This document shows positions 17,149 through 55,889 of a DNA stretch of 64,000 bases, in pieces (within the stretch, counting starts at the first letter, position 1; the number at the start of each line of letters is the position of its first letter). Under the pieces are notes generated by a model. It searched no databases and was not told the DNA's origin. It saw only the letters and a program-made list of their open reading frames with translations. The DNA is from Gammaproteobacteria bacterium. GTDB taxonomy: Bacteria; Pseudomonadota; Gammaproteobacteria; Ga0077536. Where the stretch lies: positions 416,001-480,000 of the forward strand of contig CAXXLL010000002.1 in NCBI GenBank assembly GCA_963662545.2. The letters are read 5' to 3'. A program made the translations under genes and the position numbers.

Positions 17149-17155
17149 GGATACA

Positions 17156-17575
17156 TTACTCTCGGCATCTTAGCGGTTTGAACCTTATCGGAACTGTACC
17201 CAAAGAACACTGATCCCACGTCTTGTGTTCTGGGTCAAAACGCCAGCCGATGCTCTTTCCCGCGACGTGCTCGTAAACACCTGTAGTTTTCAGTGTTACA
17301 AAGTATGGATTGGAGCCTTCAACGGTGGCGACAAATTCGCCATAGCCGCCTACATTCTTGAGTTCGCTAATATCGGGCATACGTCCAGTTTCTTCATAGA
17401 ACGGCTCAGCCTCCCGTTTGATTCTGTAGAGAATCGTAACGGCTTCTGAAACATGAAACTTTCCTGATGTATCTGGCGAAGGTTGGCTCGGAATCCATAC
17501 CGCGAGAAAGACCGCGGCAATGAATAGTAGGGCGAAAACGTGAAGCGGTTTTATGGGCCCGATCTTCATATCCAT
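17156..17575 (-). CDS. Pilin-domain-like protein without a class III signal peptide (cassette gene)
   Basis: N-terminal TM, SEAVTIL...FYEETGRMP helix and a C-terminal W-x-x-C...P..C disulfide loop typical of pilins; no GFTLIE motif. Confidence 0.55.
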   Translation of the reverse strand: MDMKIGPIKPLHVFALLFIAAVFLAVWIPSQPSPDTSGKFHVSEAVTILYRIKREAEPFYEETGRMPDISELKNVGGYGEFVATVEGSNPYFVTLKTTGVYEHVAGKSIGWRFDPEHKTWDQCSLGTVPIRFKPLRCRE

Positions 17576-17580
17576 CTAAC

Positions 17581-17727
17581 GAGGGTGTAGGAAAAGCCCC
17601 ACAGACTGAAAATGTGCCAAATTCGGGGCTCTCGATACCATTACCCTAACCGAGATCGTCGCTTACAGAGCGTCTGACGAGGCCGAATTTCTGAGCGATT
17701 ATTCGCAACGACTTATCCTACAACCTC
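17581..17727. mobile_element. 147-bp MITE, copy 2, with AAC duplicated on both sides
   Basis: Same length and end types as copy 1; shared core GAGATCGTCGCTTACAG. Confidence 0.8.
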
Positions 17728-17828
17728 AACGCTGAGTTAACCGGCGTGTTACACCGGGCTTTTCTGAAGCGAAAATTGCGCAGCTGCGAAAGAAAAGGGA
17801 ATTACGCAGAAAAGTTGACAGCACCTAT

Positions 17829-17993
17829 TTAGGTGACCTCTTTTATGGTCGGCGTCCCGCTGCGATCTGTACGCAAGACAAAGCGTTTATTAACTTCTGC
17901 TTTCGTTGGGCGCTTTGGGCGTCCAGCCGCAGGCTTTACCTTATTCATGCGCTGTAATGCTCTGGTTGATCGATCAAGCGCCTTTTGTTTCAT
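17829..17993 (-). CDS. Small basic hypothetical passenger protein (54 aa)
   Basis: Read by hand: MKQKALDRSTRALQRMNKVKPAAGRPKRPTKAEVNKRFVLRTDRSGTPTIKEVT. Confidence 0.4.
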   Translation of the reverse strand: MKQKALDRSTRALQRMNKVKPAAGRPKRPTKAEVNKRFVLRTDRSGTPTIKEVT

Positions 17994-18020
17994 AATCTGA
18001 ATATTCTAAAAGTGAGAGTC

Positions 18021-18990
18021 TTAATCGACATTATCTTCGTCTGGCGCTTCTTCGATCTGTAGGAGCGTTTGTTGCTTCACGGGCCTGTATTCTAAAACCT
18101 TCACAACATTGTGCTCCGAACTAAGTTTGTCTCCTTTCATGGTCCAAATATCTTCAATCTCACAAATCAAAACATCTGACTTACTGAACGAAACCTGATT
18201 GTTTTTTACCTTTTGAAGGAAATCGAGATCAGCAATCGTGACAGAAACTGTATTGCCCCCGTCATTGAGTCGCCACTTATTTTTCTCTTTAAACGTGAGA
18301 GATTCTATGGAAAATGCACCTTTCCTTGTGTTTCTTAGTATCTCTTCTTCGCCCTCAATCACAGGAAGGGAAAAGTATTCTTTATCTTCTTTATATATTG
18401 TTTCTATGACGTCCTTGCCAGACTGAATAACTAATTGATCTATACCTTCATATATTGTTTCTATGACGTCCTTGCCAGACTGAATAACTAATTTTATCAA
18501 GTGGGGCGGTAACTTTCTCAATCGCCTTACGGATTGAGGTTTCGTTGTACGCCCGCAGCAGGTCTTTCGGCACATCAAACGATTCACCATCAATCTCAAT
18601 GCGAACGGTCCCGTTTTCCAGGTCGGTTACTTTTGGTGCTGGCCGCCCTTTGAGCCTCTTAATAAGTCGAAATAGTCCATAGGTCGTGACACCAACACCA
18701 CCAATAATGATATCTTTGAGGTTTAAAACGGCATTAACCTCATCGCTGTTGAAAAGATCGGTGAACTGACTAAATAAAGATTGAGCCAACCCGATATCAA
18801 CACTAAAACAGCCTGCTTCAACGGCTTTAACGTGCAAGCGAACATCCACCTTGTCCCCATACAAGAGGCGGCTTGTTTCGTCGAATAATTGGGAAAGGGA
18901 GAGCAACGCTGGGGCCAGATCGCGTACGTCCACCGTGTGGTCTTGTAACGCTTCGCCATCAAACACAATGGTAAACGCTTCGTGAGTCAT
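18021..18990 (-). pseudogene. Hypothetical passenger gene frameshifted by a 43-bp duplication
   Basis: ORFs 18448-18990 and 18021-18599 join in frame (...APLDK-EGIDQLVIQ...) once the extra copy at about 18451-18493 is removed. Confidence 0.7.
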
Positions 18991-19014
18991 GCCAATGTGT
19001 GCCTTGACAAGGCG

Positions 19015-19418
19015 TTAGCCAAAGAAAAAAGTGACAAGTGCCTTCTGACTTAATTGCCAGATTTCATAGCGGTCTTTCTTAACATACATCTGGCAAGATG
19101 ATGTCGTCTCATCCCAGACAGGAACAATCACCATTTCATCGGCGAGATAGTCCATGGAATTAACGATAATCGCCTGCTCGCTTTTCTCGAAGGTAACCCC
19201 ACTTACTTGAGGTTACCGCCTTCACATCGAACTACCTTGAACTGAGTACCGAGCCCATTAGAATTTTGGATATCGAAGAGATAGTTCTGGCGCTTGCGCT
19301 GTGGCAGCCTATTCATTTCTGCAACGTCGTTTTTTGCCGCGAGGTATAGTTCCTCGAATTTAGAGCCAAGGTCGCATCTGCCCCGCTCGGCGACCCAGTT
19401 AAAGGATTCGTTACCCAT
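19015..19418 (-). pseudogene. Hypothetical passenger gene, apparently with two frameshifts
   Basis: The 72-aa ORF appears to continue in other frames (...IVPVWDETTSSC... and ...YEIWQLSQKALVTFFFG*). Confidence 0.4.
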
Positions 19419-20353
19419 CACGATACTAACCTCTCATAGGTGATTGTCTTACCCGACATTGCGCCAAACAAGGCATCTAATCTGCCTTGCGTATCTACTT
19501 CGACGTTGCCTTCATTCAGCCTGAACGAAAACTCGTTAACGTATTTCTGGCAATGCTTCTTGCTCCAGTGGTGATACACGCCGTTGTAGCCGCGCTTAAG
19601 GACCGCCCAGACGCTCTCGATTCCGTTGGTATGTGCCATGCCATTAACGTATTCCTTGGCACTGTGCTTAACGCTCTTGTGGGTGAAAAAGAGACCATCA
19701 AGGTCAGCATACCCTTTGTGATCATCGGTATAAACCGTCGTTCCAACTTCTACGTTTTTGGCGATCTGGCCCTGTAGTGTTTTTTTGTCAATGTTCGATA
19801 TCGGCAGCGCCTTAACCTTCCCGCCGCGCTCACGCAGACCGAGCACCGCCATTTTGCCAACCGCGCCACGGCCAGCGCGGAGTTTCTTGCTGGTGTGTTT
19901 GTTTGACTCTTTGCCGCCGAGGTAGGTTTCGTCTACCTCTACAGCCCCACTCAAGGCTTCCATATCTTCGCCACAGGCCAAACGTAAGCGGTGTAGCATG
20001 TACCAAGCCGTTGTTTGTGTAACAGATAGTTCCTTGCTCAACTGTAGGCTGCTAATCCCTTTACGCGCCGTCATCAGCAAGTATGCGGCAAACAACCACT
20101 TGCGCATATCCACCTTTCCATATTCAAGCGGGGTGTTGGTCCGAGCGGTGAAGTAGCTGCGGCAATACCCACACCAGTAACGGCCGATGTCCTTCTTTTG
20201 CGGTGTGATCTTATCCTCTCCGCCACACCGCACACAGCAAAGCGAATCACCCCAGCGGATTTGCTCAAGGTATTTGATTGCATCCGCCTCGGTTGGATAT
20301 TGCTCCATCAACTCGAAAAGGCTTATTGTTTTTGCTTTTCTGCGTGCCATCAA
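19418..20353 (-). CDS. IS1595-family transposase
   Basis: Zn ribbon CxxC...CxxC, VEVDETYLGG, VYTDD, HTNGIESVW, YVNEFSFR. Confidence 0.95.
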   Translation of the reverse strand: MMARRKAKTISLFELMEQYPTEADAIKYLEQIRWGDSLCCVRCGGEDKITPQKKDIGRYWCGYCRSYFTARTNTPLEYGKVDMRKWLFAAYLLMTARKGISSLQLSKELSVTQTTAWYMLHRLRLACGEDMEALSGAVEVDETYLGGKESNKHTSKKLRAGRGAVGKMAVLGLRERGGKVKALPISNIDKKTLQGQIAKNVEVGTTVYTDDHKGYADLDGLFFTHKSVKHSAKEYVNGMAHTNGIESVWAVLKRGYNGVYHHWSKKHCQKYVNEFSFRLNEGNVEVDTQGRLDALFGAMSGKTITYERLVS

Positions 20354-20385
20354 TGTGTCCTTAATGTGTCAGTTAATATGGCTGT

Positions 20386-20415
20386 ATTATAGGGTATACA
20401 AGAGATGTTTGTCAA
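20386..20415 (-). promoter_or_regulatory. Sigma70 promoter of the IS1595 transposase
   Basis: TTGACA-N18-TATAAT on the minus strand, with the -35 inside the IR. Confidence 0.65.
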
Positions 20416-20494
20416 CTTTCCTGCGTAATTCCCAAAGAAAAGCCCGCTGTAACACGTCCGGTTGAACGACTGGTTAGGTCGCACCAGTATTATT

Positions 20495-20968
20495 TTAGGC
20501 ATTCGGTTCGCTGCTCATGATCGGACGCATGATGTCGACGGTACCTCCAACCGAATAATCTTTGAGGATTTTTCGAAATTCAGAGTGTAACCGAGGGTAT
20601 CGCCTAATTATCCGTTCTACGTCTTCGCAGAACGAGACGTAGACGACCTCGTCAACCAGATCGCGATCATGCGAAATTTGAATTTCCATCCAGTGGACGA
20701 GGTACCGCCGCGCAATCGCTTCTAATAGAGCCTCTTCCGTCCTATTTAGCCCATCGTTGTCTTCGAGCTTTCCAAACAACTCCGGGATCAGCGGATTAGC
20801 GAGCATTACCTCCTGCATCCGGTTGAATTCATTCAGGACGCCGGAACTCGCAGCTGCAGTACTTTGCGCGGTGCTTTGTTTGATTTGGAGCGCGAGGTAG
20901 ATCAACGAGATTACCACTGCCACCGATGCGATGATTTCCGCTAATACCCCAAAATCTTGAAGTGACAT
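20495..20968 (-). CDS. Hypothetical membrane-anchored cassette protein
   Basis: MSLQDFGVLAEIIASVAVVISLIYLALQIKQ; bounded by attC sites on both sides. Confidence 0.75.
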   Translation of the reverse strand: MSLQDFGVLAEIIASVAVVISLIYLALQIKQSTAQSTAAASSGVLNEFNRMQEVMLANPLIPELFGKLEDNDGLNRTEEALLEAIARRYLVHWMEIQISHDRDLVDEVVYVSFCEDVERIIRRYPRLHSEFRKILKDYSVGGTVDIMRPIMSSEPNA

Positions 20969-20982
20969 AAACGTTTCTTGCG

Positions 20983-22439
20983 ACCTAACGACCCAGCTAA
21001 CCGGCGTTTCAAAATGGGCTTTCTTGGGACGAAAATGCAACGCCGGCACAAGAAAGCCCATTGTGAAACGTCCGGTTCAGCGCCTTGCTGAGGTATCCCC
21101 ACGAATTGGGACTTTTCATGAAGCGAATTCAATCCTTTAGATGATCGACGTGCCTGCTGCTGCCTGATCTAATGGTCGTTACCACACAATCACTTCAATC
21201 AGGAGCAGCAGCATGCACGGCATTAGCTTGTTAAAAAAATGGTGCGAGTGCAATGGCGTCATTGGGCATCGGGCTCGGCTCGATGCCACACTTCGGGTTG
21301 TTGGCGCCCTGCTTGATGGTGGCAAACTGGCCTTAACCCATTTGGGACGTCATCGATCGGGTTCGGCCTTCGTCAAACACCACATCAAAGCCGTCGACCG
21401 TCTGCTCGGTAATCGCCATCTGCATCGTGAACGTCGAGGACTCTATGCGGCCTTTGCACGGACACTCTTATCCACCGTGCGGCGCCCACTGATAGTCGTT
21501 GATTGGGCAGACTGCGAACTCGACCGTGAAATGCTCATCCTCAGAGCCGCCGTGCCCGCCGGCGGTCGTGCAATTACGGTGTATGAGGAAGTCCACCCCC
21601 TCAGTCGCTATAACAGCCCCAAAACCCATCGCGCCTTCTTGAAGGCGCTTCACCACATCGTCCCCGAGAACGTCATCCCTGTCGTCGTCACCGATGCGGG
21701 TTTCCGGGGACCCTGGTTCCGCCAGGTCGAAGCCCTGGGGTGGGATTGGATCGGCCGTATCCGAAACACTATCAAGTACTTCAAACCCGAGACCGGGCGG
21801 TGGTGTTACGTGCATTCACTCTACCCGCAGGCGACACCAAAGGTTCGGCATATCGGTGAGCGGTTGCTCTCCAAACGCCACCGTTACCGCTGTCGCTTAT
21901 ATCTGCTCCGGGCTTATCTGCCGCGTACCGGACGACATGCCCAGCGCAAAAGTTACGGCTCCAATGATGCGCTCTACCGTCGATTACATCGTTCACCGTG
22001 GCTGCTCGCAACCTCTCTCCCGCATACTCGAAACAGCGCTAAGGCCGTCGTGCGTGCTTACCAACAACGCATGCAGATTGAAGAGGCTTTCAGAGACCTC
22101 AAAAACCACCGCTGGGGTTTCGGTTTGCGCTATGCGTGGTCGAGGAATACTCAGCGCCTTGAAGTACTGCTTCTCATCGCGCTGCTCGCAACCCTGCTGC
22201 TGTGGTTGTGTGGGCTCGCAGCGAAAGCTAATCAGTGGACACGGCATTTTCAGGCGAATACCGAACGCAAACGAACCGTGCTATCCATTCCTTTCCTGGG
22301 ACAAGAACTCTGGCGAAGTCATCGATTCAAACTATCTCGCCATGATCTCCAGGACGCATTCATCACGTTACAACAACTCGTTATCTGCGAAGCTCAGTAT
22401 GCCTAATTCGTGGGGATCCTTGAGAACGCCTTGTTAGGC
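20983..22439 (-). repeat. Integron attC site split by an IS4-family element
   Basis: ACCTAAC...GCTAACCGGCGTTTCAAAATGGGCTTTCTTG pairs with CAAGAAAGCCCATTGTGAAACGTCCGGTTCAGC; GTTAGGC resumes at 22433. Confidence 0.8.
21088..22424 (+). mobile_element. IS4 family (IS10-like) element; transposase 21213-22406
   Basis: IRs CTGAGGTATCCCCACGAATT / AATTCGTGGGGATCCTTGAG; near-perfect 9-bp TSD A(G/A)CGCCTTG; motifs VDW, TDAGF, YQQRMQIEEAFRDLK. Confidence 0.92.
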
Positions 22440-24226: not shown

Positions 24227-24381
24227 AACGGGTACCTTTCACGCTTTTTTCGATTGACGCCTAACAGTTAATATACGGGCAGAAACGCCCTGTTATGCAT
24301 AATACTTCGTGCGTGCATTTTGTACGGGTTTGTATCTGATTTTACTGGGTTTCCTGCATACCGTAGCGGCTAAGCGACATT

Positions 24382-25822
24382 CATAGGTCGGATCTTATAA
24401 GCCGTTGAAAAGAGGGAACCAAAAGCGCTCCATCCGATCAGATCATGAAATCAACACCAATCGACTTCGTGATCTGGGAGTATCGGATGAAGCACAGAAA
24501 TTAGCAAACGCATGGCGAAATTAGCACAGTGAGCCGGCAGTTAAAACGCACGCTAGGCGAGCGTACGCTCAACGACTTGGGGCGTGCAACGCGATTCTGT
24601 CGCCGAGAAAGGGAGGTCACGCCGTTCCGTTTAGCGGTAAGCCTAATCGAAAGCTTCGCCGGGCACTCAGCGAGCTGTATCGCTGATATTCAACGCGCTT
24701 TCAATGCGCTGTGCTCGACCACGGTGCGCTACAAACCGTTTCATAATCAGCTCGCCAAAAAACAGTTTCCGATGTTTATGCAAGCGCTGCTAAGCGAATT
24801 GCTCAATGGCCTGGCCTGCGATGTCCTCCGATTCGAACCCAACAGCCCATTTGCGCAGTTTGACCACATCCGCATCCAGGACGGCACCTCGTTTGCGTTA
24901 AAACCGGCGCTGAAGGACAGCTTTCCCGGTCGCTTCACGACCGTGAGTCCCGCCGCGGTAGAACTCCATGCCGATCTCGACCTGCTCAGTGAGACCCTGA
25001 ACGAGGTCGTACTCAGCCCTGACAGCTCAGCAGAGCGGCAGTTCTTGCCGGCCGTTGAAGAGGTCGCTGGTGGTTTGCTGCTGGCCGACCGTGGCTACTT
25101 CGCGCGGCCTTACTTTGAAGCGCTCGACACCGCCGGCGGCTATTTCATCGTGCGCGCGGGTCAAGGTATCAATCCGCTGATCGTTGCCGCTCGTCGCGCC
25201 GATGGGCGGCGGGTCAAACGCTTTGACAAGCAGCGATTGAAAGCGGTGGCATCGACCTTAAAGCGCTTCGATTGCCTCGACATGGCCGTGCAATTCGACG
25301 GCGTGCAGGGACCCTGGACCTGTCGTTTAGTCGTGCACCCCAACCTTAAAAAAGGTGCAGCACCTCGTTATCTCATCACCAATCTCGACGCCACCACCTT
25401 TACCCCCGAGCATATTAGCGACGCGTATCGCTTGCGCTGGCAGGTAGAACTGCTCTTCAAAGAGTGGAAGTCTTACGCCAATCTACACGCCTTTGATACC
25501 GCCAACCCGCACATCGCCGAAGGGCTTATCTGGGCCGCACTATGCGCCGCAACGCTGCAGCGCTATTGCGCTCATGTCACCGAGCGCTGGTTGAACGTCG
25601 CCATCTCGACTCATACCGCGGCCAAGTGCATTCATCACGTGCTCGGTCCCATTCTCCATACGCTTATCCATCGGCCCCGCTCTTTACACCGACCGCTCGA
25701 ACACGCGTTGCGCTATTTGGCCAGCAACGCTCAGCGCGCAAAACCTGACCGCGATTGCATTTCGGGACGACTCAAGCTCGGCCTTCAGCATGTTCATGCG
25801 GCCGCTTAAGAACTAACCTATG
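24382..25822 (+). mobile_element. IS4-family element, copy 1 (18-bp insertion near the transposase start; ORF 24529-25809)
   Basis: Ends CATAGGTCGGATCTTA / TAAGAACTAACCTATG; 10-bp TSD AAGCGACATT; motifs QDGT, ADRGY, YRLRWQVELLFKEWK. Confidence 0.93.
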
Positions 25823-25931
25823 AAGCGACATTAATAACAGGCGCACCGAGTGGCGATATGAAGGTTCCCTACTTCGCTTTGCTAATCGTACATAAAGGAA
25901 CGACCCCGACCGAGTAATAAATCAACCGCGC

Positions 25932-26078
25932 CATGTCCGCAGTTGGCCGGGAGCCACCCAACGCCATGTTTGCGTCATCAAACGCTATCGGACGACCGCT
26001 TACGAGCGCATTGCAGACGTAACCTAGAGCGGTGCTGCACAGCCGCGATTCGGCCGCTGACGACCCGAAGGCGGCATC
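25932..26078. repeat. Dispersed repeat A: three short imperfect palindromic units at ~59-bp period
   Basis: Units near 25933, 25991 and 26051; homologous to repeats B and C. Confidence 0.65.
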
Positions 26079-26323
26079 GCTACAGATTAATAAACCTGAC
26101 ACCTATACGTCAGTAACCCGGACCCGGAGGTGCAGGCTGTGTTGTCACCATTGCTGATGTCGCATCGCGATTACAACTATGAAAAATACCTTGAACTTCC
26201 AATCGTCTTCTGAACAACTACGCCGCGGCGATCCGGAGTCTTGCCTTTTGCCCCCTTCCTCGTTTGTTAACGTAACTGGTCAATCGGCCGATAACGTCAA
26301 AATCGACTACGGAGAACGATCGT

Positions 26324-26770
26324 ATGAGACAGTGCTTATTGGCCGCATCGCTTGGCGTGATGGTCATTGCCCAAACGGTTCATGCCGATGTCATTACACT
26401 CATTGACGGCACGCGAATCCACGCCGAGGTGCTCTCCCTGCACAACGGGGTTTACACCGTCCGGAGCGACACGCTGGGGACAGTCGAGCTGGCGCGGTCG
26501 AAGATCGTCACAATCGACCAGAAAAACGCTAAACCGAACGAAACCGATCATACCTACGAGGCGCTCAAGGCCGACGTGATGGCGAATCCCGCAGCGATGA
26601 ACAGCATCATGGCGCTGCAGAATGACCCGGAGGTACGCGCACTATTGAGTAATCCCGAGACCCTGAAAGCCATCCAGTCGTTGGATCTGAACGCTCTCTC
26701 GAACAATCCGCAGATTCTCCAGTTCATGCAGCGGCCCGAGGTCCGGGAAATTAACGAGCTCATGCGATAG
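26324..26770 (+). CDS. Hypothetical exported protein
   Basis: Signal peptide ending TVHA-D; helical C-terminus with NP/DP repeats; good GGAG RBS. Confidence 0.75.
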   Translation: MRQCLLAASLGVMVIAQTVHADVITLIDGTRIHAEVLSLHNGVYTVRSDTLGTVELARSKIVTIDQKNAKPNETDHTYEALKADVMANPAAMNSIMALQNDPEVRALLSNPETLKAIQSLDLNALSNNPQILQFMQRPEVREINELMR

Positions 26771-26909
26771 CTGGCGCGAGCGGATGCCCCGCATCATGGT
26801 CACGCCGCCGAACGCTACTCGACGACCGCTTACGAGGGTACTGCAGACGTAATCTCTAGCTGTGCTGCACTGCGGCGAGGGGGCCGCTGACGACCCAATA
26901 TAGCGGCCA
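26761..26909. repeat. Dispersed repeat B
   Basis: AACGCTA..GACGACCGCTTACGAG..TGCAGACGTAA..GTGCTGCAC..GGCCGCTGACGACCC is shared with repeat A. Confidence 0.75.
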
Positions 26910-27042
26910 CGCCGGCGGGCGACTCTTCGAGCTCGTAGGCGCGCGCGAGGTTCGCGATGTAGTCGGGCGGATGATAATACGAGATGTATTGCAGCGCGTC
27001 CGCCACGCTTTGAATAACGTCCTCCGATCGAATCGCTGTCAC
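26910..27042 (-). pseudogene. N-terminal fragment of a class I fumarate hydratase
   Basis: MTAIRSEDVIQSVADALQYISYYHPPDYIANLARAYELEESPA; similarity stops at repeat B. Confidence 0.85.
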
Positions 27043-27048
27043 GGAGCG

Positions 27049-28914
27049 CTATTCGGGGATCTCGAACGCGATCAGTACGTTTCCGGGCAGCCCAAAATTG
27101 AACTGATCCAAGCCGGATGAAACGTATAAGCGGTTTTTCACGATGACGGGCCCCCCGAACGAGCCGAGCCCCCCACCGAACCCTTTGCGGCCGTTAACCG
27201 TTTCATACTCGCGCACCGTATCAAATGTCCACACCGGCTTCCCGGTCGCGGTATCGTAAGCGCGCAGTACGCCGTCGGCGGTGCCCGTGAAAACGACGTC
27301 GCCCGCCACGGTACTGGGCAAGGTAAAGGCATTGCTGCACGGTGGTGTCGTCTTACCTTTACAATCCGGCGTCATATCCTGTATACGCCATACGGACTCA
27401 CCGGTCAGGAGATCGACCGCCGTGAAGGAGCCGTTCGCCTTCCAGTCCACATCCATATCGATGACGGGTACGTAGGCATTTATGCCGTCGCTCGAGAATC
27501 CCCACTCGATACCGCCGAGCTCTCCGCCGGCGCCGAGGCGGATCTGCCACAGGACTTTGCCGCCGTCATCCGGATCCAGGCCGTAAAGCATGCCGTCCTT
27601 GGATCCGGTCACGATGATCTCCTTACCATCCGATCGTTCCACCAGCACCGCGGGAGCCACGATATCCCGGTCACCATGTCCCGTCGGGTTTAAGGGCGAA
27701 CAGGTTTTCTGTTCGGGATCCACCCACTTTTCGCAGCCCAGGTGGTAGATGTCCTGGCCGCCCATCTGCTCGGGCGCCAGTGATTTCACCCAACGCTTGG
27801 CGCCCGTTTTCATGTCCAACGCCAACATGGCGTCGGATTCGGGCACGACCGGCTCGGTCATCTGGTTGCCGGTTGGCACGTAAAGGAGGCCGCGCTTGTC
27901 GTCGACCGTGACGGCCGAGAACACCACGACCCCCGAGGGACCGTAGCGATTCGTGCCGGCTTTCGTCGTGCCCAGATACCCGAATTCCTTGTCGATGGTG
28001 TAAGACTTCCACTTGCGCTCGCCGGTACGCAGGTCATAGGCGACGATGCTGCCGCGAAACGTACAGCACGGGTATTCCTTATTTTTGCCAATATTGAGCA
28101 CTTCTTGGAGGGAGGACACGGGCACGTAAACCATGCCGTCGTGCGCCGTCACGTTGCCCGTAATGCGTGAAGTCGGCGTCCAATCCGCCCGGTCGCGCCA
28201 CAGCAATTGGCCCGTTTCCGCATCTACAGCGTAGACGTTGGCCGCCGTATCGCCAAACACGGCGATACCGTCGGACACGGCGATGTTCGACCTGATCCGC
28301 CATTCCGCCCGGAATGCCCAGTGCGCGCACCCGGTGTCCGCATCGAGCGAGTAGGCCCATTGATTGAGGTTACCCACGAACAATCGGTCGCCCACGACGG
28401 CGACCGGGTGCCCACCACCCTTGGACGCGTGGACCTGCGGGAAGGCCACGGCCCACTTGACCTTGAGGTTCGCTAACCCCGCAGCGGTGAGCTGCGCATT
28501 AGTCACATGCCGGTTGTAGCGGTTGTCGTTCGACAGTCCAGGCCAGTCATGCTCCGCATCGGGTACCAGCGGCGTCTTGTCTTTGCACATGGTCACGCCG
28601 GCACCGCGCGTGCCCTTTTCGGGTTTGTGCCCCGCGATCCACTTGGCTATCGTCCATCGCTTCGCATCGTCCATGCCATTGGCGAACTGTGCCATGACGC
28701 CGAACCACAGTTCCTTGTGAATTTCCTCTGCAGTCATGTTCGATAATGCCGTCAACGATGGGGAAATTGTGGCGCGCCCGTGGCATTCGATACAGTGTTC
28801 GGCGTACAGTGCGGCGCCGTCCAGTCCCTTCGACTTTTCGGTTGCCGGTTCGGCATACGCTGCGAGCGACGCGAACAGGGATCCAAACAGGGGTAACAGG
28901 TGCAGATTTCTCAT
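27049..28914 (-). CDS. Quinohemoprotein PQQ-dependent dehydrogenase with an N-terminal cytochrome c (polyvinyl alcohol dehydrogenase-like)
   Basis: Signal peptide, CIECH heme motif, PQQ beta-propeller repeats, YPCCTFRGS, C-terminal PGNVLIAF. Confidence 0.85.
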   Translation of the reverse strand: MRNLHLLPLFGSLFASLAAYAEPATEKSKGLDGAALYAEHCIECHGRATISPSLTALSNMTAEEIHKELWFGVMAQFANGMDDAKRWTIAKWIAGHKPEKGTRGAGVTMCKDKTPLVPDAEHDWPGLSNDNRYNRHVTNAQLTAAGLANLKVKWAVAFPQVHASKGGGHPVAVVGDRLFVGNLNQWAYSLDADTGCAHWAFRAEWRIRSNIAVSDGIAVFGDTAANVYAVDAETGQLLWRDRADWTPTSRITGNVTAHDGMVYVPVSSLQEVLNIGKNKEYPCCTFRGSIVAYDLRTGERKWKSYTIDKEFGYLGTTKAGTNRYGPSGVVVFSAVTVDDKRGLLYVPTGNQMTEPVVPESDAMLALDMKTGAKRWVKSLAPEQMGGQDIYHLGCEKWVDPEQKTCSPLNPTGHGDRDIVAPAVLVERSDGKEIIVTGSKDGMLYGLDPDDGGKVLWQIRLGAGGELGGIEWGFSSDGINAYVPVIDMDVDWKANGSFTAVDLLTGESVWRIQDMTPDCKGKTTPPCSNAFTLPSTVAGDVVFTGTADGVLRAYDTATGKPVWTFDTVREYETVNGRKGFGGGLGSFGGPVIVKNRLYVSSGLDQFNFGLPGNVLIAFEIPE

Positions 28915-29003
28915 GGTCCGATCTCCCGACATCGTCTTATTGGATGTTCACCCGAGGGCAGTTCTGAAAGCGTAGCAAATCTCGACGAACACCGTTTATA
29001 TTC

Positions 29004-29136
29004 GGGACCGCTCTTAGCCGCGAGCCGAAGTCAAGCGCTGCGATGCTTTTTATGAGAAGGGAATGGCCGTTTACGAGGGTATCCCAGACCTAACCTCTAG
29101 CATTGCTGCACTGCCGCGATCCGGCCGCTGACGACC
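29004..29136. repeat. Dispersed repeat C (third unit split by a MITE and intron; resumes at 29951)
   Basis: CCGTTTACGAGGGTA..CTCTAGC..TGCTGCACTG..GGCCGCTGACGACC. Confidence 0.7.
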
Positions 29137-29293
29137 TATTGTGTTGAAAAAGTCCGGTTCGCCGTCGGTCGCGATGTGCGTAGAAAAACCGACCGCGCAG
29201 GATCGCCTGTAAGCGACGATCGGCACTCCGGTAATGGTTTGACGACCCCCAAATTTATCGAAATCCTATGCTGCACGACTTTTTCAACACAAT
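29137..29293. mobile_element. ~159-bp MITE (last 2 nt displaced to 29949-29950 by the intron); GACC duplicated on both sides
   Basis: IRs ATTGTGTTGAAAAAGTC / GACTTTTTCAACACAAT; internal CTGTAAGCGACGATC shared with the attC MITEs. Confidence 0.8.
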
Positions 29294-29948
29294 GTGTGCC
29301 ACGAGGCACTGAAGAGATAGGGGGTCACTGAAAGTGTCGTAACTCTAACAGAGATGGAGGTAGGTCCTCCAAAGCCGCCCTGCAGGGGGGGGCTTTAAAC
29401 CACCCTAAGCTGCTCCGGTCAAGAGCCGGGGTGGTGAGCGTTAGGGAAAAGGCGTCGCAAGAGGCGTCAGGTGAGAAACAGAGAGACGAGCGCAAGCGAA
29501 CCACTGCTGAAGCGTCGAAAGAAAAATCGGGTGACATCAAAACCGAGTCTGATTGTGTGGCTCGGGAGGGATCCAGCGGGTGCCTGCTGATTGGCTGGGT
29601 GGTGTCCGGTGTATAGGTGGCGTGACGCTGTTTCGGGCTTTGTTAGGGAACGTGGGAACCTGTCGCTTGGATGTCAAGGGAGAAGTTTAAGTGGTCAACG
29701 CCACGAGAACGAGCGTACCAATGCCAGGCACAGGGGCGGAGCAACTCGTAGTAGTGATGAAGCGGGGTAATGCCCGTGGAGCGAAGGGGTTGCGTCATTC
29801 AGTCTCAGGATTGGGTCAACCCGTCAGGGGAGGAGCCCATGAGTGAGACAAAGCCGTTTCTCGGCTGAATGATGGGAGCCGGATGAGCGGAGACGTTCAC
29901 GTCCGGTTCTACGAGGGCCTCGGGGTGAAACTCCCCGGGGCTACTCAC
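29294..29948 (+). ncRNA. ORF-less group II intron (probably bacterial class D-like; RT/maturase gene deleted)
   Basis: 5' GTGTG; domain V GAGCCGGATGAGCGGAGACGTTCACGTCCGGTTC (29876-29909); domain VI ending CTACTCAC; residual 9-codon ORF MSETKPFLG* (29839-29868) with GAGGAG RBS. Confidence 0.9.
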
Positions 29949-30062
29949 CAGACCCTAAACGGCCATCGGCGAAAATCGAATAACTCATCCTGACAGTTTC
30001 GAGTAGGGGAACTCTTGTCGGCGCGGTATCCTTGCGCCTTGGGTATGCGCGAGGGGTGTCCG

Positions 30063-30407
30063 ATGAAGAAGTTTTTGCTTATTCCTTTGCTGTGCGTTTC
30101 GGGGAATGTCGCGGGGGGAGAGTACGGGGTATTCAAGAGCGGCAACGAATTGTTGTCGGACTGCACCGAGACTTCCCGAGGACTGAATTACATGCACAGC
30201 CTCGGCTACATAGCGGCGGCTGCCGACACCCATGACGTTTGGGTGACCTGGGGCGACTTACACAGAAAAATATGTACGCCATTAGAGGTCCCGCAAGAAC
30301 AGCTCAGGCGCGTCGTCGTGAAGTACCTCGAAGAGCGCCCCGCACTATTGGACACAATGGGCAGCGATGGCATCGATCGCCGTGTGAATGCCAAGCATCA
30401 CGTGTGA
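30063..30407 (+). CDS. Rap1a/Tai-like immunity protein, C-terminus possibly truncated
   Basis: Signal peptide, SGNELLSDC, GYIAAAAD, ICTP...QLRRVVVKYLEERP. Confidence 0.65.
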   Translation: MKKFLLIPLLCVSGNVAGGEYGVFKSGNELLSDCTETSRGLNYMHSLGYIAAAADTHDVWVTWGDLHRKICTPLEVPQEQLRRVVVKYLEERPALLDTMGSDGIDRRVNAKHHV

Positions 30408-30414
30408 AGGAAGC

Positions 30415-33400
30415 ATGCTGGAGCTTACTAACAAGCGCTCATCGGTTTTAGCCAGGGGTATCGTAGCCCGGAAATCCTGGGTCCTCATCGTCGCTGCGGT
30501 CTGCGTGAACGCTTCGGCGGGTGGGCCACAGGCGGCCGCGGCGGATGATGCTGGAGCGCGGCCGCCGAAGCTCGAAAGCGCAGACGCGAGGCGTTCGCGT
30601 ATCGCGCGTGAATTCCGCTCGGGCGTGGAGATTCTCGCCGCCGACGACATGCAGGGACGTGGGCTCGGAACGGCGGGTCTGAGCCGCGCTGCTTCCTGGA
30701 TCGAGGGCCGACTGCGCGACCCAGGGTTCGATCCGGCGTTCGGATCGAGCTACCGGCAGAACTTCCAGGTGAAGGTGGGCGTGGCGCTTGTGGGGCGGAA
30801 CGAGCTCAAGGGAGTTGCCGATGGGGACTGGACACCGCTCGGGATGTCCAGCAACGGAGGGTTTTCCGGAGAATTGGCGTTTGTCGGATACGGCATCGAG
30901 GCGCCGCCAATCGGCTTCCGCGAACTCTCCGGTCTCGACATCGAAGGCAAGATCGTGCTCATGCTCAGGTATGAGCCGCAGGAGCGGGACGAAGCATCGC
31001 CGTTCAACGGCAAGAAGCCGAGCCGTTGGTCGGCGCTACGCTACAAGATCCTCCAGGCGCGCGAGCGCGGTGCTGCAGCGGTGATCTTTGCCACGGGACC
31101 CCTTCAGGACGAAAGCGAGGATCGCATCCCGGCCCTGACGAACGACGGCCCGGAGAGCCCGTCCGGCATTCCCGTGATCCAGGTCAGGACGTCCGTCGCC
31201 CGTCGTTGGCTCAAGCAGGCGGGCATCGATCTCCAGGCGTTTCAGGAACAGGTCGATCGGGATCTCGTTCCACGCTCCAACGACGCGACGGGGATTCGCC
31301 TCGAAGGCCACGTCGAGCTAGCGGCCACCTATGAGGACGTGGTGAATCTCGCCGGCGTTATCTCGGGGCGGGGTATCTTCGCGAGTGATGTCTTGGTGGT
31401 CGGCGCACACTACGATCATCTTGGGATGGGGGGCGATCGGTCGATGCGGCCCAACGAGTCCGCGATCCACAACGGCGCGGACGACAACGCATCTGGGACG
31501 ATGGCAGCTATTCAGATAGGCGAGGAGCTGAAGTCGGTGCTGGCGCGCGAGAGCGATCACAGGACGGTTGTCGTGGCGCTCTTCTCGGCCGAGGAGGTAG
31601 GCCTCGCAGGATCGGCCAGGTTCGTCGAGGCGCCTCCGTTTCCCATGGAGCGCCATGTTGCGATGGTCAATCTCGACATGGTGGGCCGGCTCAAGGACGA
31701 CACTCTGATCGCGTTTGGGTCGGAGTCTGCATCGGAGTGGGGGGATTGGATCGATCGCGCCAGGCGAGCGGTCCCGGGCCTGAAGGTGACGAGCAGCGGC
31801 GACGGCTATGGTCCCTCCGACCAGACGAGTTTCTATGCAGCGGGCGTGCCGGTCCTGCATTTGTTCACCGGCTCCCACGATGCGTACCACACGCCGGATG
31901 ACACAGCGGACACGGTGAACGCCGATGGCGGCGCGCGCGTCGTCGCCTTCTCGACCTCACTCCTCAGGGACTTGGCCGTGCAGCCGGTGCGGCTCACCTA
32001 CGAGGGCGCCGGCGCTGCACCCACGATGTGGGGCGACAGCCGTGGCTTCGGTGCGTACCTCGGCACGATCCCCGACTACACGGCGATGGAATCTGCCGAA
32101 GGCGGCGTCCTTCTTGCCGACGTGCGCAAGGGCGGTCCGGCGGACCTCGCTGGTATCCGCGGGCGAGATAGGATCGTCAAGATGGCGGGGACGCGTATCG
32201 AGAACCTTTACGACATGACGTACGCGCTGCAAGACAGCAAACCCGGGCAGACGATCGAGGTCGTTGTGGTACGGGACGACAAGGACCTCCGGTTCCTGTC
32301 GACGCTCGGGGATAGAGCCGCCATGGCGAAGCAAGGGGAAGAGGGTGAAGCCGAGAAGGATCGCGACCCCGCGGCCATGCACCCGTCTCTGCCTGCGGCC
32401 CCGCCACCAAAGGAGGCGGTAGTCGCCGCAGCGGAGGATGTCGCCGCGTTCTATCGCGGCCGACCTGGCGACGACTTTCGCGTTGGGGCGGGCAAGCCAT
32501 TTCTCGACACGGTCGAGCACGAAAGGCACCTTGCTGAAATTCGCCAACTGACGTTCGGCGGGGAGAACGCCGAGGCGTACTTCAGTCCCGACGGCAGGCG
32601 TCTCATCTATCAGGCGACGGTCCCCGGCGCAGACTGCGATCAGCAGTACGTCATGGATCTCGGCACTGGAGATTCCGAGCTGGTGTCCTCCGGCAAGGGA
32701 CGCACCACGTGCGGCTATTTCGACTGGCCCGAGGGCGACCGGATCGTCTACGCGTCCACCGAGACGGCCGGCGACGAGTGCCCACTGCCGCCCGACCACT
32801 CGCGCGGTTACGTCTGGGCCTTGTACGACACGTTCGACATCTTCGAGGCGCGCCCCGACGGCTCGGGAGCGCGTCGCCTCACTGAAAGTCCGGGCTACGA
32901 CGCCGAGGCGACGTGGTGTCACCGCGGCGGGGAGATGGTCTTCACGTCGATGCGCGACGGTGATCTGGATCTCTACGCGATGGACGAGGCGGGCAACGTG
33001 AGGCGACTGACGCAAGAGGAGGGATACGACGGCGGCGCGTTCTTCAGCCCCGACTGCTCCGAGATCGTCTGGCGAGCGAGCCGCCCAGAAGGCGAAGACC
33101 TGGTGGCGTACCGCCGGCTCCTGTCCCAGAACCTGATCCGGCCGACGGCTCTGGAGATCTTCGTTATGAACGCCGATGGTTCGGCCATTCGTCAACTCAC
33201 GGCCAACGGTGCCGCCAACTTTTGTCCGACCTTCACGGCGGACGGCTCGAAGATCGTCTACGCCTCCAACTATGCCTTCGAGGCGGGCGCCGCGCGTCCC
33301 CGCGAGTTCGATCTGTGGCTCGTGGACAAGGCGGGCGGTGAGTCCGAGCAGGTCACGTTCGCGCGAGGCTTCGATGGCTTTCCGCAATTCAGCCCCGACG

Positions 33401-33483
33401 GTCGCTGGCTCGTGTGGGCTTCGAACCGAGCCGATCCGGGGTCGGGCGAGACGAACATCTTCATTGCACGATGGGTGCCGTGA
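30415..33483 (+). CDS. M28 aminopeptidase (PA + M28 + PDZ) fused to a C-terminal TolB-like PD40 beta-propeller
   Basis: GAHYDHLG, NGADDNASG, SAEEVG, NLDMVG, YHTPDD; PDZ YLGTIPD; propeller repeats AEAYFSPDG, GGAFFSPD, GFPQFSPDG. Confidence 0.88.
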   Translation: MLELTNKRSSVLARGIVARKSWVLIVAAVCVNASAGGPQAAAADDAGARPPKLESADARRSRIAREFRSGVEILAADDMQGRGLGTAGLSRAASWIEGRLRDPGFDPAFGSSYRQNFQVKVGVALVGRNELKGVADGDWTPLGMSSNGGFSGELAFVGYGIEAPPIGFRELSGLDIEGKIVLMLRYEPQERDEASPFNGKKPSRWSALRYKILQARERGAAAVIFATGPLQDESEDRIPALTNDGPESPSGIPVIQVRTSVARRWLKQAGIDLQAFQEQVDRDLVPRSNDATGIRLEGHVELAATYEDVVNLAGVISGRGIFASDVLVVGAHYDHLGMGGDRSMRPNESAIHNGADDNASGTMAAIQIGEELKSVLARESDHRTVVVALFSAEEVGLAGSARFVEAPPFPMERHVAMVNLDMVGRLKDDTLIAFGSESASEWGDWIDRARRAVPGLKVTSSGDGYGPSDQTSFYAAGVPVLHLFTGSHDAYHTPDDTADTVNADGGARVVAFSTSLLRDLAVQPVRLTYEGAGAAPTMWGDSRGFGAYLGTIPDYTAMESAEGGVLLADVRKGGPADLAGIRGRDRIVKMAGTRIENLYDMTYALQDSKPGQTIEVVVVRDDKDLRFLSTLGDRAAMAKQGEEGEAEKDRDPAAMHPSLPAAPPPKEAVVAAAEDVAAFYRGRPGDDFRVGAGKPFLDTVEHERHLAEIRQLTFGGENAEAYFSPDGRRLIYQATVPGADCDQQYVMDLGTGDSELVSSGKGRTTCGYFDWPEGDRIVYASTETAGDECPLPPDHSRGYVWALYDTFDIFEARPDGSGARRLTESPGYDAEATWCHRGGEMVFTSMRDGDLDLYAMDEAGNVRRLTQEEGYDGGAFFSPDCSEIVWRASRPEGEDLVAYRRLLSQNLIRPTALEIFVMNADGSAIRQLTANGAANFCPTFTADGSKIVYASNYAFEAGAARPREFDLWLVDKAGGESEQVTFARGFDGFPQFSPDGRWLVWASNRADPGSGETNIFIARWVP

Positions 33484-33758
33484 TCGGCGTCGGGCTGTGC
33501 GATCGCGCCCATGTTCCTGACGGTCTCACCTGGAGTATAGGAAGAGCAAGAGTATAGGGAGAACAACGCCCCAATTCACAGGTATCGGCGCGCAAAACGT
33601 AGCGCCCGATAGGAGCTGCATGGCCGATTGAGCATGGGACTATCAGTCGTACGATTGGGATATCCGAGATGAAAAGCAACGTAAGAACATCAGAACGTCA
33701 GTGACAGGAACCCGCTTTGGCGGGTTTCTTGTTGCCTGCGCGATGTCCGTTGCTGGCC

Positions 33759-33917
33759 GAGGCTGTGTCAAAAGTCGAAAAATGCACGACGCCGCGAAAA
33801 TATTTCCCACTAAGGTTGTTATGAACGGCTGATTAAGGGACGGCACCCTTTAACTTAAGCGAATCGGGCTAAACTTCTCCCACTTTCAAAATTCGAAAAT
33901 ACTTTTGACACAGCCTC
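33759..33917. mobile_element. 159-bp MITE with IS1182-like ends; GGCC duplicated on both sides
   Basis: IRs GAGGCTGTGTCAAAAGT / ACTTTTGACACAGCCTC, inserted in ATGTCCGTTGCTGGCCGAAAGCCGCCAT. Confidence 0.82.
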
Positions 33918-34008
33918 GGCCGAAAGCCGCCATGCTCACTTGAGGGATTCGCATCACCGGTAACGGCTGCTTTCGGGCTAAGCGGACGTGGAGTTAAGCG
34001 ATGGCTTC

Positions 34009-34224
34009 TCATTCCTGTTCCCAATCCTTCGGCCAAAATTTCCTCCGCGCCCATATCCACACCCACCATAACGCTGCCATCCAGAACGTAAAAGCCATTG
34101 CTCTCTGCAACGGGTTTGATTCTGGTGCTCCGGCGGCAATCCAATAACCGAATCTAGCCCCTATGAGATTGCTTTGGGCGATGGAGACGAAAAGGGTCGC
34201 TTTGTAAGTCGCTTGATCTTTCAT
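34009..34224 (-). CDS. Small hypothetical membrane protein
   Basis: MKDQATYK... with a Trp-rich TM segment. Confidence 0.4.
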   Translation of the reverse strand: MKDQATYKATLFVSIAQSNLIGARFGYWIAAGAPESNPLQRAMAFTFWMAALWWVWIWARRKFWPKDWEQE

Positions 34225-34396
34225 ACGTGTAGCTTCGCTTACTCTCGCACTCAGTTCGTCGGTGAATAATATGCCGCAGTACAGGGGAGCCCGGAAATGT
34301 TCCGAGATATGTGCTTTTGGTACAGTTTGCTTTGAAATTGTTTTCAGCAAAATCAATACTTAGCGGCGTAAGAATGGCGATACAGGAGCAAACTGA

Positions 34397-34669: not shown

Positions 34670-36750
34670 ATCCGAAGATTGGTGCTTCTTCGCGCGAACC
34701 CTAAATATCCAATCCCTGTTAAACCTGACGCCAGCATCGGAAGGGCCGCGGGTATGGTTACGAAAGAAACCTCCATGTTATCGAGATAAGGCGACGCTAA
34801 TTCGCCGATTCCGCTGATGGTGAGCCGGGTCATGTTATCGCCCGTTACCGTCAATCGCGTTCTAAACTTGTGGCGGCATCGGATTATTAGGCGCCGCAAA
34901 TTGTACGTCCTCTCCGACGCGGAAAAAGTCGATCGTTGACGGTGGACCTGGAAGGAACTGAAAGTCCAGCGGAGATAGTCGCACCCCGTGATTACCAATA
35001 ACTACGACATCAAGCGACACTTGAGTCACAGGTCGAGCGAAATCTAAGATTACTGGTCCGGCGGAAAACGGGTCTTGGCTCATCCCCAAAGTACCGAATT
35101 CCACAAAATCAGGTTCGCCGCTCGGCGCAGTGATGTATACCGCGTTTTGGAAAACGATATCGGCGGTATTCTCAACAAGAAAAAATGTAGACGGATTTCC
35201 AGGAATCTGGGCTGTGCCGTCCTCAAAGTCGAGAGTAACTGCGTTTGCGTAGGTTCATAGGTCGGATCTTATAAGCCGTTGAAAAGAGGGAACCAAAAGC
35301 GCTCCATCCGATCAGATCATGAAATCAACACCAATCGACTTCGTGATCTGGGAGTATCGGATGAAGCACAGCGAAATTAGCACAGTGAGCCGGCAGTTAA
35401 AACGCACGCTAGGCGAGCGTACGCTCAACGACTTGGGGCGTGCAACGCGATTCTGTCGCCGAGAAAGGGAGGTCACGCCGTTCCGTTTAGCGGTAAGCCT
35501 AATCGAAAGCTTCGCCGGGCACTCAGCGAGCTGTATCGCTGATATTCAACGCGCTTTCAATGCGCTGTGCTCGACCACGGTGCGCTACAAACCGTTTCAT
35601 AATCAGCTCGCCAAAAAACAGTTTCCGATGTTTATGCAAGCGCTGCTAAGCGAATTGCTCAATGGCCTGGCCTGCGATGTCCTCCGATTCGAACCCAACA
35701 GCCCATTTGCGCAGTTTGACCACATCCGCATCCAGGACGGCACCTCGTTTGCGTTAAAACCGGCGCTGAAGGACAGCTTTCCCGGTCGCTTCACGACCGT
35801 GAGTCCCGCCGCGGTAGAACTCCATGCCGATCTCGACCTGCTCAGTGAGACCCTGAACGAGGTCGTACTCAGCCCTGACAGCTCAGCAGAGCGGCAGTTC
35901 TTGCCGGCCGTTGAAGAGGTCGCTGGTGGTTTGCTGCTGGCCGACCGTGGCTACTTCGCGCGGCCTTACTTTGAAGCGCTCGACACCGCCGGCGGCTATT
36001 TCATCGTGCGCGCGGGTCAAGGTATCAATCCGCTGATCGTTGCCGCTCGTCGCGCCGATGGGCGGCGGGTCAAACGCTTTGACAAGCAGCGATTGAAAGC
36101 GGTGGCATCGACCTTAAAGCGCTTCGATTGCCTCGACATGGTCGTGCAATTCGACGGCGTGCAGGGACCCTGGACCTGTCGTTTAGTCGTGCACCCCAAC
36201 CTTAAAAAAGGTGCAGCACCTCGTTATCTCATCACCAATCTCGACGCCACCACCTTTACGCCCGAGCATATTAGCGACGCGTATCGATTACGCTGGCAGG
36301 TCGAGCTGCTATTCAAAGAGTGGAAGTCTTACGCCAATCTACACGCCTTTGATACCGCCAACCCGCACATCGCCGAAGGGCTTATCTGGGCCGCACTATG
36401 CGCCGCAACGCTGCAGCGCTATTGCGCTCATGTCACCGAGCGCTGGTTGAACGTCGCCATCTCGACTCATACCGCGGCCAAGTGCATTCATCACGTGCTC
36501 GGTCCCATTCTCCATACGCTTATCCATCGGCCCCGCTCTTTACACCGACCGCTCGAACACGCGTTGCGCTATTTGGCCAGCAACGCTCAGCGCGCAAAAC
36601 CTGACCGCGATTGCATTTCGGGACGACTCAAGCTCGGCCTTCAGCATGTTCATGCGGCCGCTTAAGAACTAACCTATGTGCGTAGGTTAAGTTCAGCTCA
36701 AAAAATGTTAGGAGCGCCGTGATCAACACATTTAGCGCCGCTTTTTTCAT
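34666..36750 (-). pseudogene. PEP-CTERM/VPLPA-CTERM-type surface protein, interrupted by IS4 and frameshifted
   Basis: MKKAALNVLITALLTFFELNLTYA|NAVTLDFED reads through once the IS and one TSD are removed. The sorting-like tail TIPAALPMLASGLTGIGYLGFARR is in another frame. Confidence 0.7.
35256..36678 (+). mobile_element. IS4-family element, copy 2 (intact transposase, stop at 36665)
   Basis: Nearly identical to 24382-25822; 10-bp TSD TGCGTAGGTT. Confidence 0.95.
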
Positions 36751-36845: not shown

Positions 36846-36922
36846 TGGTCGGGGTGACAGGATTCGAACCTACGACCCCTGCCTCCCGAAGGCAGTGCTC
36901 TACCAGGCTGAGCTACACCCCG
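36846..36922 (-). tRNA. tRNA-Pro(CGG)
   Basis: CGGGGTGTAGCTCAGCCTGGTAGAGCACTGCCTTCGGGAGGCAGGGGTCGTAGGTTCGAATCCTGTCACCCCGACCA. Confidence 0.97.
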
Positions 36923-55841: not shown

Positions 55842-55889
55842 GGGGACAACGCGAGATTCTGCAGCGCTTACCCAAGCTAACGAGCGTCT

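Follow-up and report, generated by a model that had tools for sequence, protein, structure and literature searches.

A previously undescribed 145-149-bp non-coding repeat at the joints of unrelated gene segments in a gammaproteobacterial accessory island, and its possible role as a recombination site

The subject of this work is a short repeat, present as co-oriented blocks between unrelated genes in 64,000 nucleotides of a Gammaproteobacteria bacterium (contig CAXXLL010000002.1, positions 416,001 to 480,000 of the forward strand, assembly GCA_963662545.2), a stretch hereafter called the window. Several described systems offer points of comparison. Repetitive extragenic palindromes (REPs) and bacterial interspersed mosaic elements (BIMEs) are intergenic mosaics of palindromic units and linkers, and specific insertion sequences (ISs) exist that target REP units at the centres of their palindromes. 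The pdif (Xer) modules of Acinetobacter plasmids are bounded by palindrome-like sites of ~28 bp in alternating orientation, the enzyme being encoded elsewhere, whereas the attC sites of integrons carry RYYYAAC and GTTRRRY boxes. In the Tn3 family, the 38-bp terminal repeats run GGGG...TAAG and the res site is laid out in three subsites. Miniature elements derived from Tn3 transposons include some in which inverted repeats enclose a res site with three subsites, and directly oriented copies of such elements flank captured genes, an arrangement for which integration of a one-copy circle is the proposed origin (PMC13367494). The reading tentatively favoured below is that the block is a cis-acting site, used by a recombinase or transposase that would be encoded elsewhere and act in trans.

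Three homologous, co-oriented blocks (A, B and C), with 78-83% mutual identity in a self-BLAST of the window, lie where the original prediction had placed three diverged blocks, and an independent repeat search returned the same three-member direct family at 25965, 26795 and 29036. An nhmmer search of the window detects blocks A-C with E values from 1e-33 to 1e-42. A profile built on the three copies recovers just these blocks in the 64 kb (E 1e-39 to 1e-42), and a ten-copy profile that includes relatives from other genomes gives the same outcome, with no further significant copy. With the conserved terminal motifs as anchors for both ends, all seven full copies measured are 145-149 bp long. 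The blocks of the window are as follows.

25933-26077, plus strand: block A, full copy of 145 bp (nhmmer E 1e-39).
26762-26910, plus strand: block B, full copy of 149 bp (profile match; ends from terminal motifs).
29004-29136, plus strand: block C, left 133 bp, ending ...GCTGACGACC (nhmmer E 5e-33).
29955-29966, plus strand: block C, final 12 bp CTAAACGGCCAT, beyond the insert and a duplicated GACC, matching the family tail ...CCCnnAnnGCGGnCAT.
33743-33758, plus strand: probable block D, first 16 bp ATGTCCGTTGCTGGCC (weak nhmmer match, profile positions 4-24).
33922-33989, plus strand: second part of probable block D, reaching profile position ~100 (weak match; the remainder of the block is missing).

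The continuation of block C beyond 29136 was thus correctly anticipated, and the block measures 145 bp once the 814-base insert (29137-29950) and the duplicate GACC are taken out. As for the related units proposed at 33743 and 33963, the two halves of block D are collinear and flank a 159-bp insertion, while each reaches only E ~1 in a 22-kb search. An orthologous, uninterrupted counterpart exists in a related contig, L026 (126-194, 7.4 bits only), where positions 137-254 are 84% identical to the window. Block D is therefore described here as a probable degenerate partial copy, weak and not firm, whereas the unit proposed at 16272 has to be abandoned, showing neither a significant match to the block profile nor a fold (z +0.8). 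Beside block D, a small open reading frame (ORF) with its downstream sequence (34009-34356, minus strand) adjoins the partial block; the same pair recurs in the window at 63640-63800 (minus strand) and in L026 at 205-440, where it again adjoins the partial block.

All copies are confined to 25.9-34.0 kb of the window, within 8 kb of accessory DNA, at spacings of 0.7-3.8 kb that include genes, and ~40 kb of core DNA in the window carries none. The block is a non-coding DNA element: single-base indels between copies, together with in-frame stops in some of them (block B, for example), leave no consistent coding frame, and a 77-amino-acid ORF across block A has no relative in a protein set of 5.8 billion clusters. 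No Rfam family matches a block in the window region or in the three related loci, either at the gathering threshold or with E values up to 5. Promoter prediction gives one site in the region against 3.3 expected, and none inside any block. Block A has no match among 72,556 plasmids (blastn, distant mode), and a literature search by sequence strings and keywords yielded analogues and no paper on this repeat, which is previously undescribed. Two simple identities were considered and rejected. By eye the block shows no similarity to tRNA-Pro or tRNA-Sec, as a tRNA-derived attachment repeat would, and a CRISPR (clustered regularly interspaced short palindromic repeats) array, with its short, regular repeats and spacers of 25-50 bp, does not agree with such wide, gene-containing spacing, nor with the lack of cas domains among the 62 window ORFs scanned (26 + 36), as had been noted originally.

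The DNA between the blocks changes from one interval to the next, in the window as well as in three relatives, so that the description of the blocks as separators of unrelated cargo is borne out. In the window the segments are these.

26078-26761, plus strand: cargo 1, an exported protein of 148 amino acids (ORF 26324-26770).
26916-27042, minus strand: cargo 2a, a class I fumarate hydratase gene reduced to its first ~43 codons by truncation at the right end of block B.
27049-28932, minus strand: cargo 2b, a pyrroloquinoline quinone (PQQ)-dependent dehydrogenase with a cytochrome c domain.
30015-33483, plus strand: cargo 3, a Rap1a-like protein (30015-30407) and a 1031-amino-acid M28 peptidase with PA, PDZ and PD40 domains (30388-33483).
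33633-33740, plus strand: a decayed PEP-CTERM gene tail and a rho-independent-type terminator, directly left of block D.

BLAST homology between copies stops sharply at the block ends, and these limits match the changes of gene content. Cargo genes lie on both strands; most of the neighbouring genes are intact and begin or end 5-230 bp from a block, and block C falls between the divergent starts of the PQQ dehydrogenase and Rap1a genes. Both observations originally made on block B hold. The last 9 bases of ORF 26324-26770, including its stop codon, overlap the left end of the block, while its right end cuts the fumarase gene. The fumarase fragment is 93-98% identical to the N-termini of 508-amino-acid "fumarate hydratase" proteins from gammaproteobacterial metagenome-assembled genomes (MAGs); it had no match in a PDB search or a family scan, and its identity came from a longer protein search. 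The remainder of the gene is absent from the window, leaving the fragment stranded downstream of the PQQ dehydrogenase. Because the right end of block B is fused to fumarase codon ~43, the segment between blocks B and C is a raw piece of chromosome.

Relatives were sought in 185,579 species-representative genomes with a 24-letter pattern of 20 specified bases. The scan returned 50 loci, 47 of which match the search pattern alone, by chance, and three of which hold true relatives.

L005 (a MAG of Pseudomonadota), with three copies, at 9890, 11345 and 12346.
L026 (label Chloroflexota), with two copies as well as one partial copy.
L015 (label Poribacteria), with two copies, of which one is truncated where the contig ends.

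No claim is made about a spread across phyla, because the two short contigs among them may be mis-binned. In all three loci the copies are co-oriented and 0.8-2.5 kb apart, with unrelated genes between them: an alpha/beta hydrolase, a pilin-domain protein and a flavin adenine dinucleotide (FAD) monooxygenase in L005, a tRNA_edit protein and a tetratricopeptide repeat (TPR) protein in L026, and a GFA protein and a PEP-CTERM protein in L015. The scan of relatives, a check that had been proposed, found three co-oriented arrays in addition to the one within 8 kb of the window. Altogether, all ten firm copies share their strand with the neighbouring copies of their contig, for which the chance with freely oriented copies is 1/64, or 1/256 when two weak copies are added. 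The exact search pattern is present in six of the nine known copies that cover that part, and the scan nonetheless gave one locus per genome, which argues against a high-copy dispersed family; this is suggestive rather than strict, as MAGs break at repeats. The L005 array begins just downstream of tRNA-Sec, preceded by 9.9 kb of core genes without copies, and its copy 3 lies between the divergent starts of the pilin-domain and monooxygenase genes. Joined to L015 copy 1 at its left end is a group II intron reverse transcriptase gene, truncated after 190 amino acids. One left flank, the PEP-CTERM gene tail with its terminator, is common to L015 copy 2, L005 copy 1 and window block D, the gene being intact in L015 but decayed in L005 and the window, whereas the right flanks differ; therefore the block travels, or is inherited, with the DNA to its left. 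A proposal that the partial copy and copy 1 of L026 were halves of a mid-block integration was discarded, given that copy 1 aligns to profile positions 28-167 and is a whole diverged copy. As separate observations on L005, its tRNA-Sec gene is accompanied, ~550 bp upstream and just before the block array, by a partial copy of 82% identity (the pair occupying 8503-8575 and 9056-9151), which resembles a scar left by integration at tRNA-Sec, and selA, upstream, is seemingly split into two ORFs.

In its anatomy, block A shows three units ~59 bp apart, centred near 25945, 26004 and 26064. The outer two are the ends of the element, each an imperfect palindrome of 24-28 bp around GGCC or GACC, of a family that reads roughly G[T/A]CCGCT-N3-GG[C/T]C-N3-AGCGGnC; alignment of the copies gives block ends of the form ATGTCCGC... 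and ...GCGGnCAT. The ends are mutually inverted, the left consensus ATGTCCGCTGTTGGCCGAGAGCCG and the reverse complement of the right one, ATGACCGCTATGGGTCGTCAGCGG, matching at 17 of 24 positions. Between them, the best-conserved part is a core of ~70-95 bp, which holds further ..CCGC.. half-site-like motifs in direct orientation. None of the seven copies inspected is flanked by target duplications, as expected for the internal copies of an array built by recombination. The copies also share no target of 4-5 nt directly on their 5' side (the trait of the palindrome-associated transposable elements, or PATEs, of the IS200/IS605 type), their left flanks being different. Whole blocks fold no better than shuffled sequences on either strand (z -1.3 to +1.1), whereas attC-like hairpins in the same window fold strongly (z -11.0 and -8.6). 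RNAalifold likewise returns unfavourable covariation terms on both strands (+0.78 and +1.8), with compensation in 1 of 20 and 0 of 27 pairs. Sequence is conserved among the copies and structure is not. The left-end motif occurs seven times in the window against 3.15 +/- 1.9 expected, three of the seven being the blocks themselves; a simple dispersed palindrome, GTCCGC..GCGGAC, was tried as well and set aside, with two matches, both in coding DNA, against 0.38 expected.

Two of the blocks are interrupted by mobile elements, which comprise members of a family of miniature transposable elements with inverted repeats (MITEs) and a group II intron.

29137-29293 plus base 29950 (its presumed last base), plus strand: E3, a MITE-like element of 158 bp with perfect 17-bp terminal inverted repeats ATTGTGTTGAAAAAGTC.
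33759-33917, no strand assigned: E4, a MITE-like element of 159 bp, with a GGCC duplication at 33755-33758 and 33918-33921.
29294-29949, plus strand: a 656-nt group II intron without an ORF, GTGTGCC...CTCACC (Rfam RF01999, 115.7 bits; RF00029, 54.9 bits).

E3, whose GACC target duplication occupies 29133-29136 and 29951-29954, is inserted at the centre of the right-end palindrome of block C, and E4, a member of the same family, at the centre of the left-end palindrome of block D, which is uninterrupted in L026. A relative on an Azotobacter chroococcum plasmid lies inside GTCCGCTTTGGGCC/GGCCAGGAGCGGAC, with no block around this insertion site; the left-end motif is unenriched in 50 kb of that plasmid (4 matches against 3.15 expected), where the site does not recur as a dispersed repeat. 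Members of one MITE family have inserted independently three times at the centres of GTCCGCT..GGCC..AGCGGAC-type palindromes, and the end palindromes are therefore distinctive DNA targets, although the insertions do not reveal their normal user. The family itself has four copies in the window, E1-E4 (16893-17036, 17582-17725, 29137-29293 with 29950, and 33759-33917), and, outside it, the relative at L053 2958-3114; its members end like GA..CTGTGTYRAAAAGTC, share the core CTGTAAGCGACGATC...GGTAATGG...CCCCC and produce 4-bp target duplications (GACC, GGCC and probably CGTT). As for the intron, comparison with L051 and L052 defined both its ends, and only one base separates it from the right end of E3, so that the MITE end may be its homing site. 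Introns on rhizobial plasmids, of which some have ltrA and one, in Rhizobium leguminosarum, is also ORF-less, share ~71-72% identity with it. A group IIC-attC intron aimed at a hairpin of the block was rejected, since the nearest relatives are the rhizobial ltrA introns and the site belongs to the MITE and not to the block.

The block shares some features with each of the known systems closest to it. Like the Tn3-derived miniature elements IS101 and TIME244, it is short and non-autonomous, with inverted repeats around what may be a multi-subsite site and a presumed enzyme acting in trans, and its three palindrome-like units ~59 bp apart, unevenly conserved, might correspond to the three subsites of res. 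However, those elements measure 209-244 bp and make 5-bp duplications; the block ends are unlike the 38-bp repeats, GGGG being absent from their start, the window ORFs scanned include neither a transposase nor a resolvase of the Tn3 family, and the plasmid collection gave no match. The translocatable units and pseudo-compound arrays of IS26 also present directly oriented copies amid unrelated segments, segments that may end inside genes and internal copies without target duplications, but IS26 encodes its own transposase and the block encodes nothing. With attC sites, including clusters of attC sites lacking an integron integrase (CALINs), the block shares a single locus of co-oriented repeats placed 3' of small cargo units, as well as the link to what lies upstream, attC staying with its upstream gene and the block with its left flank in three contigs; unlike attC, it lacks a hairpin, R''/R' boxes and conservation of structure alone, and its cargo lies on both strands. 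The palindrome-like sites of ~28 bp in alternating orientation, with an enzyme presumably encoded elsewhere, bring pdif modules to mind, but the sequence is not dif-like and the two sites are always joined by a conserved core of 95 bp. Lastly, a mosaic of palindromic units and conserved linkers with insertions at palindrome centres is also what REPs and BIMEs display, whereas the blocks are neither dispersed nor found in both orientations, and their motif is unenriched outside the array.

Among the possible explanations, a cis-acting junction site is preferred, with less than even confidence, because the blocks are co-oriented, restricted to one accessory locus and present at every joint, and because they combine inverted-repeat ends and occasional fusion inside genes with a lack of target duplications. 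According to this proposal, the block and its adjoining DNA would behave as one unit, gained and lost by recombination between copies. Recombination of two co-oriented blocks, by the enzyme or by RecA, would release or delete a block-plus-cargo unit, and a circular unit recombining with a resident block would be added to the array; the outcome would be one-way arrays with a block at each joint and no target duplications. An occasional joining of a block end to new DNA, of the transposition type, could account for cargo that ends within a gene. Cargo in both directions, gene-cutting joints and degenerate inverted repeats look more like the junctions of a transposon or translocatable unit than like a cassette site. 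The original prediction of a gene-capture system survives in what it said of a second, non-attC repeat family at the joints, while the features favour this other style of junction over an integron-like cassette system.

Several points weigh against the junction proposal. Neither integrase, resolvase, recombinase, HUH nor cas genes occur among the 62 window ORFs scanned, and no recombinase, resolvase, integrase or HUH gene is present among the 12 ORFs in 14 kb of L005. The enzyme, if it exists, would be encoded outside the window, as originally postulated, but neither a recombinase nor a HUH nuclease was found anywhere, and the trans-acting enzyme is entirely hypothetical. Nor did an empty site, an excised circle or a strain polymorphism come to light, and our confidence stays low because enzyme, circle and polymorphism are all missing from the evidence. 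The flanking genes are mostly intact, and a passive intergenic repeat would look alike; three of nine copies (L005 copy 2, L026 copy 2 and L015 copy 1) lie between convergent gene ends, and the three copies with a shared left flank may all descend from a single locus instead of having arisen independently. Clear terminal inverted repeats emerge at the consensus level only and are degenerate per copy: end-to-end alignments of single copies average 3.6-4.2, hardly more than the 2.8 +/- 1.5 for shuffles and 3.0 in forward orientation. Moreover, under a criterion of 9-nt arms with at least seven matches, palindromes are kept unevenly, on the left in 3/10 copies, in the centre in 5/10 and on the right in ~5/9, so that of the three palindromic units per block proposed at the outset the ~59-bp geometry stands better than the palindromes themselves. 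Finally, the known set amounts to ten firm copies on four contigs, two of which are shorter than 4 kb and one of which ends inside a block; block end points were picked by eye, and copy number per genome is uncertain, given that repeats break MAG assemblies.

The main and serious rival, less probable than the junction site although by no means remote, is an intergenic mosaic repeat comparable to REP/BIME elements or MITEs, passive or selfish and accumulating in dispensable island DNA without any role in cargo capture, which would mark joints merely through homologous recombination between copies and nearby IS activity. Terminal inverted repeats, a MITE-like size, a non-coding sequence that matches no RNA family and an island crowded with IS elements and MITEs would all suit such a repeat, as would the mostly intact neighbouring genes with their short spacers and the common left flank of three copies, which suggests vertical descent. 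In addition, a MITE or IS family that inserts at palindrome centres may be likened to the REP-targeting ISs. What this explanation accommodates less well is the co-orientation of 10/10 firm copies within their contigs, together with their complete absence from ~40 kb of core DNA in the window and 9.9 kb in L005. The same is true of the single locus per genome, despite the exact pattern carried by 6/9 copies, of the 0/7 target duplications and of the unenriched left-end motif (7 against 3.15 +/- 1.9 in the window, 4 against 3.15 on the Azotobacter plasmid). The window ORFs scanned include no RAYT (Y1 HUH) transposase.

A third explanation, which we consider rather improbable, is a second gene-capture system, independent of integrons, with a dedicated site-specific recombinase and shared among environmental bacteria. 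Here the blocks would be double-stranded sites of 145 bp, made of two palindromic core-like sites and the conserved accessory core, and circles of cargo plus block would be inserted and excised at a single chromosomal locus by a tRNA gene.

Much less credit can be given to a cis-regulatory or RNA element, that is, a promoter cassette, an invertible promoter or a small RNA upstream of accessory genes. The inverted repeats around a conserved core of ~95 bp and the position of block C and L005 copy 3 between divergent gene starts would favour it. Against any such element, invertible promoters included, stand the three copies of nine between convergent gene ends, the failure to predict a promoter in any block, the absence of Rfam matches and covariation, and a block orientation that stays constant whatever the direction of the neighbouring genes.

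The surroundings of the array are themselves rich in mobile DNA. The blocks belong to an island of ~22 kb between core genes and a tRNA-Pro gene (36849-36922, minus strand), which also contains an IS21 remnant, an IS481-type element and the following pair.

24380-25824 and 35254-36680, direct orientation: two copies, 98% identical, of an IS with a DDE_Tnp_1 transposase.

An 18-bp indel close to the 5' end distinguishes the two IS copies, which have separate 6-bp target duplications, GCGACA and CGTAGG, and a composite transposon around the blocks was accordingly rejected in favour of two simple insertions. To the left lies an array of attC-like hairpins (16900-21090, minus strand) with minus-strand cassette-like ORFs, one HbpS-like and the others unassigned; it looks like a CALIN, and an integron integrase was not found in the window. 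One of its units (16885-17135) has no match among the 72,556 plasmids. An IS1595-family element carrying extra ORFs interrupts one attC-like hairpin (17730-17800 and 20430-20470), and two insertions of the MITE family are directly beside attC-like hairpins. Without the IS at 24380-25824, the block array would follow immediately on the hairpins and their cassette-like ORFs. The flank of an attC-like site (window 20985-20994) and the right end of L005 copy 2 (11468-11477) have a 10-base string in common, CTAACGACCC, and MITE copy E1 is inserted at the equivalent place beside another hairpin; this may be coincidence or may point to an earlier exchange between the arrays. Elsewhere in the window, a direct repeat family of ~45-92 nt has copies at 55881, 56031 and 56076 (within 55881-56190), with 66-84% identity, beside a Fur-family gene.

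This neighbourhood raises the weakest alternative, in which the blocks would be unusual attC sites of an integrase-less integron, recombined by IntI: the adjoining attC-like array at 16.9-21.1 kb, the one- or few-gene units with short spacers and the shared CTAACGACCC speak for it, but it is very improbable, and the original statement that this is a non-attC family is upheld, in view of the lack of a single-strand hairpin next to neighbours that fold strongly, the absence of RYYYAAC and GTTRRRY boxes from the block ends, the conservation of sequence and not of structure across contigs, and cargo on both strands that in one case ends inside a gene, the failure to find intI in the 62 window ORFs not being decisive alone because CALINs also do without it. 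Both this and the regulatory explanation are poorly supported, and the probability that remains beyond the readings set out here is unexplained.

A last question concerns the meaning of these repeats for the bacteria that carry them. If they were passive repeats, they would enlarge the known range of bacterial mosaic repeats only modestly. If enzyme-driven exchange proved true, the blocks would be part of a gene-shuffling platform distinct from integrons, with double-stranded, sequence-conserved sites that accept cargo either way round as well as raw chromosomal segments. The 145-bp profile would then be a searchable signature with which to find the enzyme by co-occurrence, and the arrays would represent a new route of accessory-gene flux in uncultured Gammaproteobacteria-like organisms.

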